Positions 4,112 to 18,220 of a DNA stretch of 64,000 nucleotides are shown one piece after another. Made by a program: the position numbers and the translations under genes. Source of the stretch: Klebsiella phage KMI11; sequence record MN101225.1; one strand, 5' to 3'. The notes under the pieces are model-generated. The model searched no databases. It saw nothing but the letters and a program-made list of their open reading frames with translations, and was not told the DNA's origin. The stretch's first letter is position 1, and each line of letters begins with the position of its first letter.

Positions 4112-4711
4112 ATGATTCAAATAGTTTATGCCTTTGCTCCTACAAAAACTGTAGACGGCAAAAATGAAAATGCTTTCGGTTTAGGCGATGGCCTTCCATG
4201 GAAACATATTTCCCAGGACATGAAAAACTTTGCTAATCGTACTCGAGACACTATCTTGATTTGCGGAGCAAAGACTTTTATGAGTTTTCCTGAACCTCTT
4301 CCTGGTCGTAAGACAATCGTTGTCCAAGACATGAGTCGTGCGTTGGCAACAGCTAAAAACGGATTTTTTGCTGACGCGTATGCTAGTGAAGAAGAATTTA
4401 TGGAATTTTTAGGTGGTGAACACCTTGCTGGGCACACTTCATATAATAGCACGATTACTTTCAATCGCAGTGAAAAATATTCAGTGATAGGCGGTGCCGG
4501 AATCATCCAGAAGGCATATCCATACGCAGATAAGGTTATCCAAACAATCATCAGAAAAAGTCATAGAGTGAATTCTGATGTCACTCTGCCTATTGCGTTT
4601 GTGGTGGCTCCAACCTATGAAAACTCTGGGTTTAAAGTTATTGAAAATCACTGGTATCATATTGATGAAGTGACTAACATTTCAGAGGTGGTCTATGAGC
4701 GCAAACTATGA
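4112..4711 (+). CDS. frd: dihydrofolate reductase
   Basis: 199 aa. PTKTVDG.NE.AFGLGDGLPW...GAKTF.S.P..LPGR...HWY.IDEVT matches T4 Frd. Confidence 0.9.
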   Translation: MIQIVYAFAPTKTVDGKNENAFGLGDGLPWKHISQDMKNFANRTRDTILICGAKTFMSFPEPLPGRKTIVVQDMSRALATAKNGFFADAYASEEEFMEFLGGEHLAGHTSYNSTITFNRSEKYSVIGGAGIIQKAYPYADKVIQTIIRKSHRVNSDVTLPIAFVVAPTYENSGFKVIENHWYHIDEVTNISEVVYERKL

Positions 4712-5012: not shown

Positions 5013-5880
5013 ATACCAAGAATTAATTAAAGACATTTTTGAAAACGGCTATGAGACTGATGACCGTACTGGTACCGGTACTATTGCAAAGTTTGGTACT
5101 CAACACCGGTTTGATTTACAAGAAGGATTTCCGGCAGTAACTACCAAGCGTCTTGCGTGGAAAGCGTGCATTGCGGAGCTGATTTGGTTCATGCGTGGGT
5201 CTACTAATGTGCATGAATTGCGTCTTATTCAGCATGATTCATTGCTCGAAGGCAAAACTGTCTGGGACGACAACTATGAAAACCAGGCAAAAGACATGGG
5301 GTATTCCGGAGGTGAACTGGGACCTGTGTATGGCAAGCAATGGCGAGATTTCATGGGTGTTGACCAACTGAAATTGATCATTGATCGTATCAAGCAACTT
5401 CCATATGACCGTCGTCAGATTGTGACTGCATGGAACCCGGTTGATTTGGACAAAATGGCATTACCTCCATGCCATTTACTGTATCAATTTAACGTTCGTC
5501 AGGGGCATCTTGACCTCCAGTGGTATCAGCGTTCTGTAGATGTATTCCTTGGCCTCCCCTTCAACATTGCGTCATACGCGGCACTAGTTCATATCATTGC
5601 TAAAATGACAAATCTTAAACCTGGGCATTTGGTATTCACTGGTGGTAATACTCATATTTACCTGAACCATATTGAGCAATGTAAAGAAATTCTTCGTCGA
5701 GAACCGAAAGAACTTTGTGAGCTTGAAATTAATTATTGGCCTCCAGTAAAAGATAAAGAATTTCATGAATTAGCAACAGAAGAACAATTAGCTTGGGTTA
5801 CAGGAATGATGAAACCATCTGACTTTGTTCTTAAAGGATATGAATCTCACCCAACAATTAAAGGAAAGATGGCAGTTTAG
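5005..5880 (+). CDS. td: thymidylate synthase, uninterrupted (no group I intron)
   Basis: 291 aa from MREYQELIKDIFENGYETDDRTGTGT. Colinear with T4 Td exon1+exon2, including ...QRSVDVFLGLPFNIASYA... and C-terminal HP.IKGKMAV. Confidence 0.93.
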   Translation: MREYQELIKDIFENGYETDDRTGTGTIAKFGTQHRFDLQEGFPAVTTKRLAWKACIAELIWFMRGSTNVHELRLIQHDSLLEGKTVWDDNYENQAKDMGYSGGELGPVYGKQWRDFMGVDQLKLIIDRIKQLPYDRRQIVTAWNPVDLDKMALPPCHLLYQFNVRQGHLDLQWYQRSVDVFLGLPFNIASYAALVHIIAKMTNLKPGHLVFTGGNTHIYLNHIEQCKEILRREPKELCELEINYWPPVKDKEFHELATEEQLAWVTGMMKPSDFVLKGYESHPTIKGKMAV

Positions 5881-16144: not shown

Positions 16145-16449
16145 AACTGACTACTGAACAAAACATCCATATCCGTGAAACCCTTAAAGCTGTGCTGAGC
16201 ATGGGTGAATCCCAGATTGTGTTTGAAAAAGCTGATGGTACTATTCGTACTCTGCGCTGTACTCGTGATAAAGATATTATTCCATCTGATTTGGTAGAAA
16301 GTACTACTAAATCTGCCCGAGCAGAAAGCACTACTTCACTTCCGGTATATGATACCGAGAAAGAAGGTTGGCGCTCATTTACCTTTGATAAACTGATCTC
16401 GGTAAATGGTATGAAAGTTGAGCATCTGCTGCAGATGATCGGTAAGTAA
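16141..16449 (+). CDS. hypothetical protein (31.1 position)
   Basis: 102 aa, ATGA coupling. Confidence 0.55.
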   Translation: MKLTTEQNIHIRETLKAVLSMGESQIVFEKADGTIRTLRCTRDKDIIPSDLVESTTKSARAESTTSLPVYDTEKEGWRSFTFDKLISVNGMKVEHLLQMIGK

Positions 16450-16451
16450 TT

Positions 16452-16477
16452 TGCTTTAAACTGACCATGTTAATATA
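16452..16477 (+). promoter_or_regulatory. T4 middle (MotA-dependent) promoter for gene 31
   Basis: MotA box tTGCTTTA 16451-16458, then -10 TAATAT/AATATA about 20 nt downstream. A palindrome tgaccatg...catggtca follows. Confidence 0.55.
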
Positions 16478-16506
16478 ACTACATGGTCAAACAATAAAGG
16501 TAACAC

Positions 16507-16830
16507 ATGGAACTTCCAATTAAAGCTCTAGGCGAGTATGTAATTCTCGTATCTGAACCTGCACAGCAAGGTGATGAAATTGTTTCTCCTTCCGGTATTA
16601 TTCTTGGAAAAGAAGAACAAGGACAACTGCCGGATATGTGTGAAATCTATTCTATCGGTGATGATGTACCGAAAGGATTTGTTGAGGTAGGCGATTTGAC
16701 TCCGTTGCCTGTTGGTAATATCAGAAACGTACCTCATCCGTTGGTAGCAGCAGGTGTGAAGAAACCTAAAGAAATCCGGCAGAAGTTTGTGACTTGTCAT
16801 TATAAGTCCCTGGCGTGCGTATATAAATAA
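16507..16830 (+). CDS. 31: gp31 co-chaperonin (GroES analogue)
   Basis: 107 aa. [25 protein letters not shown]...G..P..C...[41 protein letters not shown] as in T4 gp31. Confidence 0.93.
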
Positions 16831-16945
16831 TAATATGAATTGGGCGTCGGACAATTAGTTACCCGAGCAATTCTACGCGGTGGATGCCCGAGCTAAACCT
16901 CGGTTACCGTCCACCAAATTTTAACCTCATTTGAGGAATGTTTCA

Positions 16946-17194
16946 ATGAACAAACAACTTACTAAAGCTCTGGAACTCCAACGTAATGCATGGAATTCCG
17001 GTCACGAAAACTACGGTGCTTCCATCGATATCTATGCAGAAGCACTGGAAGTTCTGAAAGGTTTTAAACATCTGAACCCAGCACAAGCTGAATTTCGTGA
17101 TACTTTAGAAGCGATGGATGAACTGAAGTATGCTAAGCATCTTGGTTCTGCTGCTCGCAAAGCTGTTCGCCACTTTGTGGTAACGCTGAAGTAA
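16946..17194 (+). CDS. rIII: rIII lysis-inhibition accessory protein
   Basis: 82 aa from MNKQLTKALELQRNAWNSGHENYGASIDIYAEALE. T4 rIII is 82 aa. SD gagg. Confidence 0.85.
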   Translation: MNKQLTKALELQRNAWNSGHENYGASIDIYAEALEVLKGFKHLNPAQAEFRDTLEAMDELKYAKHLGSAARKAVRHFVVTLK

Positions 17195-17532
17195 TTTGTA
17201 CGCCCACCATGTGTACGCATGGGTAACGTATGATGTGGACGTTGTTGGTTATCCCCACGTAAAACATCCGAAACCATCGGTGATTTGCTACCAAAGTGCA
17301 GCTAGAAAATAAACGGCAAGTGCATGCTACCCCGAGGCGATGGCCAATCGGGAGTACGCCTCAAGGCCTATACATCCATCGGTGTATATCTTATCCCCGA
17401 GAAATCGGACCCGGAACCTTTAAGCTAACGGTGTGCAACAGATAAGAGTTTAAACGTACCCCTTGAGGGCTTGCGGGAGCTACAACCGAAAGAACTGTCG
17501 AAAGAAGTTGAACCTCGGAAGAACGTGCTCCC
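17195..17532. other. GC-rich (about 50%) ORF-less, hairpin-rich segment; candidate structured ncRNA or foreign insert
   Basis: Stops in all frames. Stems gaggcg/cgcctc (17334-17366) and gggagc/gctccc (17476/17527). ccatcggtg repeated. cgRaagaaS repeated three times. Confidence 0.3.
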
Positions 17533-17562
17533 ATGTATTTCTCCAAAATGGAAGATGATAAA

Positions 17563-17739
17563 ATGGCTAAACAAGCTAAAGCAAAAACTGCAGTAAAAGA
17601 AGTTGTTGGTACCTCTAAACGCGCTGGCTACAAGCGTGGGTCGAACAAGCGTATCAATCAGACGGTTGAGAAAATCATGCGTCGAGCTCGTGCGGTTCTT
17701 CGCGATGATGCTTCTCGTTTTGGTAAGCCGAAAGCATAA
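17563..17739 (+). CDS. small basic protein (Lys/Arg-rich), hypothetical
   Basis: 58 aa, MAKQAKAKTAVKEVVGTSKRAGYKRGSNKRINQ... SD ggaaga 8 nt upstream. The track start at 17533 lacks an SD. Confidence 0.5.
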   Translation: MAKQAKAKTAVKEVVGTSKRAGYKRGSNKRINQTVEKIMRRARAVLRDDASRFGKPKA

Positions 17740-17742
17740 GTT

Positions 17743-17772
17743 CAGGGACTCCTTCGGGAGTCCCTTTTTTAT
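17743..17772 (+). terminator. rho-independent terminator
   Basis: gggactcc-ttcg-ggagtccc followed by ttttttatttt. Confidence 0.85.
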
Positions 17773-17794
17773 TTTCCACAGAATGAAAAAAGTT

Positions 17795-17824
17795 GTTTAC
17801 TTCTAAGTTCAACAAGGTTACTAT
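17795..17824 (+). promoter_or_regulatory. T4 early-type promoter
   Basis: GTTTAC 17795-17800, 18-nt spacer, TACTAT 17819-17824. A-tract upstream (gaatgaaaaaa). Confidence 0.55.
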
Positions 17825-17860
17825 AGACCTGTACCACCCAAACGGACAACGGAGAATAAA

Positions 17861-18220
17861 ATGAACTTCACTAACTTCAACCGCAAATACGTACAGAACA
17901 ATGCTTGGGACGTTTCTACTACTTTACTTTGGGAACATAACAATGGTACAGTAGCTCAAATTGATATGTACTGGGAAGATAACTACGTATTCTTTAGCTT
18001 TGAAAATGGTCCTACTCTGGATATTCAGTTCAACGGTTCTGAAATCAAAGTTGGATTCCATGATGAAGTTCGTAAACGTGATTTATCTTCACACCCGTCT
18101 TGGAACACAAATCGTCAGCTGCTTGTTAAAATTTATCTGCGCCACATCCTCGGTCGTAAAACAACCGAAGAACAACGTGAAGCAATCTGGGATATCGTTT
18201 CAAACGAAATCAAGTTTTAA
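17861..18220 (+). CDS. hypothetical early protein (30.x region)
   Basis: 119 aa, SD ggagaataaaATG. Confidence 0.6.
   Translation: MNFTNFNRKYVQNNAWDVSTTLLWEHNNGTVAQIDMYWEDNYVFFSFENGPTLDIQFNGSEIKVGFHDEVRKRDLSSHPSWNTNRQLLVKIYLRHILGRKTTEEQREAIWDIVSNEIKF

Follow-up and report, generated by a model that had tools for sequence, protein, structure and literature searches.

The gap between the lysis-inhibition gene rIII and the homologue of gene 30.9 in Klebsiella phage KMI11 was analyzed within a 64,000-nucleotide (nt) stretch of record MN101225.1, hereafter the window. The center of this gap (17310–17452, within 17195–17562) is, judging from comparative sequence analysis, very probably a previously undescribed folded RNA of ~145 nt made from the sense strand, an optional and exchanged cassette set in a mosaic of other RNA modules. 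The first-pass annotation, made from the letters of this stretch without database searches, had offered a structured non-coding RNA or a horizontally acquired insert as candidate readings. The former agrees with a core that has the covariation of a sense-strand RNA, its fold being far more elaborate than the hairpins then listed. The latter is essentially right as well: the core is a discrete exchanged cassette, with the correction that it came from other T4-like phages and not from a host or plasmid.

The gap has a GC content of 47.8% against 39.6% for the whole window, and in a composition scan just 2% of 368-nt segments reach this level. The segment 17281–17400, counted by hand at 48–52%, computes to 50.0%, and the 143-nt core has 50.3%. 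The description of the gap as lacking open reading frames (ORFs) also stands, the longest in any frame being at most 53 amino acids (aa). Structure is not confined to the GC-rich part, as the whole spacer is made of conserved RNA modules.

Predicted fold and comparative support

The predicted fold of the core is a linker-free four-way junction with seven helices and a 6-bp kissing loop. Its parts are as follows.

17310–17452, + strand: core element, structured RNA of ~145 nt, from covariation, RNAalifold, the minimum-free-energy (MFE) fold and a covariance model
17310–17314 / 17448–17452, + strand: P1, the closing helix
17315–17317 / 17366–17368, + strand: P1a
17318–17325 / 17360–17365, + strand: conserved 8 x 6-nt internal loop
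17326–17335 / 17348–17359, + strand: P2
17338–17343 with 17376–17381, + strand: kissing loop of 6 bp, P2-loop CGAUGG with P3-loop CCAUCG
17369–17374 / 17383–17388, + strand: P3
17389–17395 / 17441–17447, + strand: P4
17397–17400 / 17405–17408, + strand: P5, with a GAAA loop
17409–17413 / 17429–17434, + strand: P6
17435–17440, + strand: J6/4 (GCAACA)

The four arms are P1; P1a with the internal loop and P2; P3; and P4, at whose far end P5 and P6 join it in a three-way junction. The fold was first drawn by eye from the differences among variants and tested afterwards on two alignments, one made with MAFFT from 28 distinct variants (A3) and one guided by the covariance model, with 29 distinct rows (A4), in which the divergent EcS1 copy is placed correctly. 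In A3, standard pairs make up 95.2% of the pair cells, and both sides have changed at 23 of the 38 pairs; none of 500 shuffles scored as high, and sliding the 3' partners by 1–3 columns left 29–43% paired. With the extended structure, A4 gives 96.7% paired cells and double changes at 25 of 45 pairs, the core helices each being 99–100% paired. RNAalifold, applied to the same MAFFT alignment, independently returned the same helices and added P1a and the absence of linker nucleotides at the junction, and the single-sequence MFE fold agrees.

The kissing helix is fully paired in all 29 variants, and three of its six pairs covary (CG/UA, GC/UA/AU and GC/AU). The two loops change in concert, as CGAUGG/CCAUCG, UGAUGG/CCAUCA, CUAUGG/CCAUAG and CAAUGA/UCAUUG. 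Because the kissing pairs lie outside the covariance model, the model-guided alignment was not biased toward them. The motif ccatcggtg, listed earlier as a repeat, does occur at both 17274 and 17376, but it is not a repeat unit, the second copy being the P3 loop itself, partner of the P2 loop in the kissing interaction. The first copy (ccaucggug, 17274–17282) could in principle pair with the P2 loop in place of the P3 loop, but is probably coincidental, because three close relatives (L006, L007 and L037) read ccaacggug there. A helix between gaggcg and cgcctc, proposed earlier, was rejected because it shows no compensatory change and conflicts with covarying helices, namely P2 and the kissing loop, with which it competes. 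Its first strand is at 17334 as reported; the second lies at 17357–17362, 4 nt away from the 17361–17366 given for it.

About 45% of the core positions are invariant, including unpaired nucleotides of the internal loop and junction, while the stems drift and compensate. Stretches of 12–20 nt in the core vary little or not at all, and most of their nucleotides are unpaired. Candidate further tertiary pairings met with inconsistent evidence among the few informative variants: J2/3 AAGG with the P6-loop CCUU, GGCC with (A/G)GCU, and 5' GCAUGC with 3' GUGUGC. On inspection of the core, no convincing K-turn, loop E or 11-nt tetraloop-receptor motif was seen.

The core helices contain 14 G·U cells and no A·C cells, an asymmetry that points to an RNA read from the + strand, in the same sense as rIII and 30.9.

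The covariance model built on the core (R1) found a single match in the window, at 189 bits, and had none in T4 or the other T4-like loci without the element, 24 in all. At the gathering threshold, none of the 4,227 models of Rfam 15 matched anywhere in the 64-kb window; at E <= 10 over 16700–17900, the sole overlap was snoZ242, which at 11.6 bits against a threshold of 90 is noise. ARAGORN found no tRNA or tmRNA genes in the window. A group I intron was rejected, the element being ~145 nt long, intergenic and without an Rfam match, where a P3–P9 core usually takes at least 200 nt. No description of an rIII–30.9 spacer RNA was found in the literature. The main text of a bulk survey of viral structured RNAs contains neither T4-like phages nor rIII; the expression of rIII and 30.9 was the subject of a 2003 Biologija paper that PMC9409239 cites.

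Distribution and exchange of the element

In a sensitive blastn search, many phages of Escherichia, Shigella and Yersinia aligned at ~95% identity over the middle 135 nt (17314–17448) only, their flanks remaining unaligned. Comparison of T4 with its close relative Shigella phage 113 revealed a clean insertion of ~150 nt between cttgaatgt and (g/a)atgatgacggg, the T4 site being empty. The same site occurs in three states among Tequatrovirus, Dhakavirus and a third group, namely empty, carrying the element, or carrying an unrelated insert of ~50 nt, and is a hotspot of cassette exchange. The unrelated insert, uauuuuguacuaucacgcgucagaaaaagguuaucugucuaagucgugguugg, was observed in five loci (L016, L017, L019, L021 and L026, at ~1840–1900 in each), and only its first ~9 nt are common with the 5' flank of the element.

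In all of the ~60 copies fetched, the element is placed in sense orientation between rIII and 30.9, 14–140 nt after rIII and 80–183 nt before 30.9, on either side of the spacer segment described below as module B. Between genera, it is 85–99% identical, compared with 64–78% for rIII at the nucleotide level. Pairwise identities of the element and of rIII are uncorrelated (Spearman 0.17), and the two similarity trees disagree. PG7 and a Karamvirus phage, for example, share 96% identity in rIII and 87% in the element, while the window and phage Marfa share 70% and 99%, respectively.

The element was found in about 390–400 of 50,697 phage records, an rIII homologue being present in 1,094. Carriers include nearly all Klebsiella phages and about a quarter of the Escherichia phages; altogether, the core RNA is carried by roughly one-third of the T4-like phages of enteric bacteria, not by T4. 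The element is thus an optional, horizontally exchanged cassette confined to the Tevenvirinae of Enterobacterales. An invariant 20-mer had no match in 185,579 bacterial and archaeal genomes, and sensitive blastn against E. coli genomes and plasmids gave no match to the element. A metagenome scan returned T4-like contigs only, besides five chance matches to an 18-mer, and a relaxed gapped pattern run on IMG/VR added one contig (L095), whose copy is identical to that of Erwinia phage IT22. Insertions of 1–1.5 kb in some Klebsiella relatives were considered and proved unconnected, as they consist of extra genes downstream of 30.8.

Three records deserve a remark. In Klebsiella phage vB_KpnM_17-11 (MW239157.1, L090), the equivalent of 17392–17534, from inside P4 to the 3' end of the hairpin module C, is inverted and the element destroyed, whether by a natural rearrangement or through an error of assembly. 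Aeromonas phage PS49 (PP212877.1, L083) has the same element sequence as contig L008 and as KMB20 (L085), a Karamvirus phage of Enterobacter, and Enterobacter phage SonariX (PQ898399.1, L084) is a 248-kb partial genome with a T4-like cd–31–rIII–30.9 block. The host label of PS49 and the assembly of SonariX may be worth checking.

The rIII–30.9 transcription unit

The window comes from a T4-like Klebsiella phage with 98–99% identity to Jiaodavirus phages such as TNG87 and KP179. The features around the gap are listed below.

16507–16830: gp31, assigned by T4 gene order
16822–16829, + strand: T4-type late-promoter motif TATAAATA, an exact sequence match, 5' of rIII at the start of the transcription unit
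16946–17194, + strand: rIII, lysis-inhibition accessory protein, the upstream cistron (phrog_1457, E = 1.6e-40)
17195–17562: the flagged gap, an ORF-less spacer between rIII and 30.9
17563–17739, + strand: gp30.9 homologue, a basic protein of 58 aa, the downstream cistron (phrog_1427, unknown function)
17744–17775, + strand: intrinsic-terminator-like hairpin with a U tract, at the end of the rIII–30.9 unit
17861–18220: gp30.7-family gene

The rIII product is 76% identical to T4 rIII in amino acids and the gp30.9 homologue 88% identical to T4 gp30.9; a Pfam search with the latter gave no match. The late-promoter motif, identified by sequence match alone, occurs in 18 copies in the window against 5.3 expected by chance, and the terminator-like hairpin is the sole such site in 16400–18000. 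From the gene order, the late-promoter motif and the single terminator it follows that the gap is the non-coding intercistronic spacer of the rIII–30.9 unit on the + strand. The expectation, drawn earlier from T4 gene order, that only small 30.x ORFs should lie here was mistaken, as T4 itself has a non-coding spacer of 244 nt between rIII and 30.9. The 115-nt leader from the late-promoter motif to the rIII start codon (16831–16945) is GC-rich and hairpin-prone too (for example gguggau...guccacc and cccgag...cucgg), and part of it is conserved with T4 (87% over 46 nt).

Other modules of the spacer

At least six conserved RNA modules form the mosaic of the spacer, whose length does not fall below ~120 nt in the T4-like phages compared. 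Besides the core, the modules are the following.

17195–17232, + strand: module A, small hairpin (ccaug-uguacg-caugg) immediately behind the stop codon of rIII
17233–17280, + strand: module B, hairpin with stem 17235–17238 / 17255–17258, loop GGUUAUC and tail CGU(A/U)AAA...AAACC
17281–17309, + strand: module X, spacer segment shared with other T4-like phages, found next to the stop codon of rIII (3' of it) in other lineages; phage Marfa has it with 100% identity
17453–17473, + strand: module S, small hairpin GUACCCCUUGAGGGCUUG, with a 15-nt exact match in T4 and many loci
17474–17535, + strand: module C, hairpin of ~60 nt with internal purine-rich CGAAAGAA repeats, immediately 5' of the ribosome-binding site of 30.9
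5070–5117 of the T4 locus (L005), minus strand: the T4 homologue of module C

Module A contains the palindrome that had been noticed near the rIII stop (ccaccatgtgtacgcatgg at 17204). Erwinia phage IT22 has a copy with 97% identity across 34 nt, placed downstream and not upstream of its core element; on direct reading, that copy has an A-to-G change that leaves the stem intact by forming a G·U pair. In 15 variants of module B, three stem pairs are intact throughout and two pairs show double changes (in 7 and 6 sequences), the stem occurring as GAC/GUC, GGC/GCC, GUC/GAC and GUG/CAC. Module B, made up of AUGAUG, the covarying stem, the GGUUAUC loop and a CGUUAAAUA..AAACC tail, is kept in nearly all T4-like phages examined, including T4 (~4600–4660 of its locus, minus strand). 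The position of module S relative to the core varies among loci.

Module C is closed by gggagc, found at 17475–17480 (1 nt from where it had been placed), and gcuccc, at 17527–17532 as given before; the enclosed repeats are also present, cgaaagaa at 17487 and 17499 and cggaagaa at 17516. Its closing stem covaries (GGUAGUC/GACUACC and AGUAGCC/GGCUACU), as do inner pairs (CGA/UCG versus UGA/UCA, and AAC/GUU versus AUC/GAU). In this phage, Merlin and PG7 the module lies upstream of 30.9, but in T4 and other Tequatrovirus phages upstream of rIII. It has the look of a movable 5' leader set immediately ahead of a ribosome-binding site. Because module placement differs among phages, we conclude that T4-like phages reshuffle RNA modules around rIII and 30.9.

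Interpretation of the core RNA

Several observations weigh against reading the core as a folded functional RNA. Its existence at the RNA level is deduced from covariation and the G·U asymmetry. P1 is AU-rich, lineage-specific in sequence and just 78–80% paired; P1a, with only wobble-compatible changes, and most of P6 are invariant and hence uninformative (P6 has one compensatory change and one mismatch), and the P5 tetraloop is not strictly GNRA. Folding against shuffled sequences gave z = -2.0 for the 151-nt core and for the 381-nt spacer; thermodynamic support for the structure suspected earlier is thus present but weak, and it is the comparative evidence that carries the case. The variants are closely related (mean column identity 82%), so that the covariation partly reflects a small number of lineages, perhaps six to eight independent ones, and the high conservation could stem in part from recent spread rather than constraint. 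Finally, neither a conserved expression platform after P1 nor a terminator following the element was found.

We propose that the core RNA would be made as part of the rIII–30.9 mRNA, between the late promoter at 16822 and the terminator at 17744, would act as an autonomous folded domain independent of its exact place in the spacer, and would recognize a specific partner. Partner recognition is favored because such a large share of positions, unpaired ones included, is invariant while the stems drift and compensate, a combination typical of partner-recognizing or catalytic RNAs and not of simple stabilizing hairpins. As a tentative suggestion, the core may be an aptamer-like domain that binds a ligand or protein, regulating its transcript in cis or serving as a decoy or sponge. 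By analogy, its layout would be that of a junction-type aptamer, with a closing P1, adjacent arms locked by a kissing interaction and conserved nucleotides near the junction. A P1-closed, covarying aptamer fold of this kind is present in the core and is not specific to riboswitches. A classical cis riboswitch is not supported, because no conserved expression platform follows P1; what follows depends on the lineage, being modules S and C, module B, or modules A and B. Somewhat more speculatively, the core might found a functional RNA class specific to T-even-type phages, carried as a swappable cassette and acting as a sensor, a sponge or decoy, or a ribozyme; a sensor could respond to a nucleotide or second messenger tied to lysis inhibition or host defence signalling.

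Junctions combined with kissing loops are known from aptamers such as the purine and lysine riboswitches, and the cobalamin and SAM-I riboswitches are examples with four-way junctions. Like the core, riboswitch aptamers have a weak, variable P1, adjacent arms held by a Watson–Crick loop–loop contact, conserved unpaired nucleotides near the junction and a size of about 70–200 nt, and they lie upstream of one gene family on the sense strand. The core differs in matching no Rfam riboswitch model, in lacking a recognizable expression platform, in its restriction to one phage subfamily instead of broad bacterial lineages, and in preceding a gene, 30.9, that has no known function. Self-cleaving ribozymes with four-way junctions include the natural hairpin ribozyme and twister-sister, and the hammerhead has type-dependent loop–loop contacts. 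A perfect four-way junction, interacting adjacent arms, conserved internal loops and an intergenic or intercistronic place in a phage genome are common to these ribozymes and the core; unlike them, the core matches no ribozyme covariance model, lacks on reading the conserved core sequences of those classes, and is present as a single copy at a single locus. The T4 RNAs rnaC and rnaD (species 1 and 2) are likewise phage-encoded, T-even, ~120–140 nt long and without known function, but they belong to the tRNA-cluster locus and are annotated separately in the T4 record as small stable RNAs. Homology to them was rejected, as the covariance model, run over the T4 tRNA region without filters, scored no higher than 7.6 bits.

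A further comparison is offered by PeSLs, composite early-promoter and stem-loop motifs that flank variable ORFs in T4-type phages, as described in PMC2839356 and PMC4122927 (Arbiol et al. 2010; Comeau et al. 2014). PeSL cassettes are short and non-coding and mediate or accompany the modular shuffling of T4-like genomes; the core, too, behaves as a swappable cassette within a mosaic intergenic region, but it has a multi-helix fold of ~145 nt. No sigma-70-like promoter on the + strand and no terminator-like site was found within or next to the core, and the two papers mention neither rIII nor 30.9.

Among the alternatives, a small protein-coding gene or decayed pseudogene, as annotated in many GenBank records, is scarcely credible. 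Several relatives' records do contain ORFs of 34–49 aa across the core, and the window has an ATG ORF of 34 aa at 17324–17428. However, this ORF is interrupted in 12 of the 28 variants. Variable sites are spread over the three codon positions without bias (18/20/19), indels of 1, 2, 3 and 9 nt occur among the variants and some break the frame, no PHROG family matches, and the changes are compensatory in RNA helices. The coding sequences (CDSs) annotated on the spacer are probably overcalls by gene callers on structured RNA; up to four hypothetical-protein CDSs cover the spacer in the records of relatives (for example PV402692, PP738764, PQ657785 and PP597384). An element acting at the DNA level, whether a miniature inverted-repeat transposable element (MITE) or similar transposon, a target or remnant of a homing endonuclease, a replication or recombination site, or a host or plasmid insert, is also very improbable. 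It would account for the presence/absence polymorphism, the sharp borders with short inverted flanks, and the GC-richness relative to the genome. A DNA duplex function, however, does not explain a strand-asymmetric occurrence of G·U without A·C, and the inverted flanks, which are P1, covary by lineage as an RNA stem does, unlike conserved transposase-binding ends. The MITE or DNA transposon was rejected on these covarying termini together with the absence of a target-site duplication at filled versus empty sites and the occurrence of one copy per genome, in one orientation, at one locus. Nor is there an adjacent endonuclease gene, the extra DNA of relatives lying downstream of 30.8, or any host, plasmid or bacterial match.

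The remaining alternatives operate at the RNA level. A stable RNA released from the mRNA and acting in trans as a decoy, sponge or small RNA against some factor of the host, such as an RNA-binding protein or a defence system that senses RNA or is guided by it, overlaps with the aptamer-like reading and differs from it just in acting in trans rather than in cis; we regard it as unlikely, though worth keeping in view. An optional cassette exchanged between genera, with alternative inserts at its site, is the pattern of an arms race; P1 insulates the fold from its flanks, position is irrelevant, and late transcription would be strong if the late promoter is used. Yet the core resembles no host RNA, has no extended complementarity to E. 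coli genomes, carries no processing signals that we could find, and the complements of two conserved unpaired segments match the phage window at chance level; to our knowledge, no defence system is inhibited by such an RNA. A self-cleaving ribozyme or processing signal, cutting the rIII–30.9 transcript and so uncoupling the stability or translation of the two cistrons, appears less probable still. The compact multi-helix fold with its four-way junction and docked adjacent arms, the conserved unpaired nucleotides of internal loop and junction, as in hairpin, hammerhead and twister-sister ribozymes, the intercistronic site, and the irrelevance of exact placement, which fits an autonomous catalytic module, would all suit it. 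Against this, no Rfam ribozyme family matched even at E <= 10, no position could be put forward as the site of cleavage, the element is dispensed with in T4 and in about 60% of T4 relatives, and known self-cleaving classes are usually widespread and multi-copy, whereas the core is a single copy at one locus in one phage subfamily. Slightly lower again we place a passive structural element that has no specific partner and serves as an mRNA stabilizer, RNase barrier or translation-insulating spacer. The spacer is packed with hairpins throughout (modules A, B, S and C), in T4 too, which suggests a general RNA-level role for the region, and the core is dispensable in many phages; but a barrier needs no kissing loop, no linker-free four-way junction and no stretches of 12–20 nt that are wholly or nearly invariant and for the most part unpaired, and the core is more conserved than the neighboring protein genes.

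Significance

On the comparative evidence, the core is a structured-RNA family of T-even-type phages of Enterobacterales, with a complex predicted tertiary fold that goes beyond a generic hairpin-rich spacer. T4-type phages are among the best-studied biological systems, and the core RNA was probably overlooked because T4 itself lacks it. Such complexity of fold is usual only in riboswitches, ribozymes and dedicated protein-binding RNAs, and we know of few RNAs of this complexity in virulent phages. A covariance model would correct ~400 genome annotations, spurious hypothetical proteins having been placed on the core in many GenBank records. Phages with the element, with an empty site and with an alternative insert coexist within single genera and provide a natural comparison, and in the kissing loop disruptive mutations can be matched cleanly by compensatory ones. 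An exchangeable accessory RNA cassette would represent a new kind of phage accessory function.

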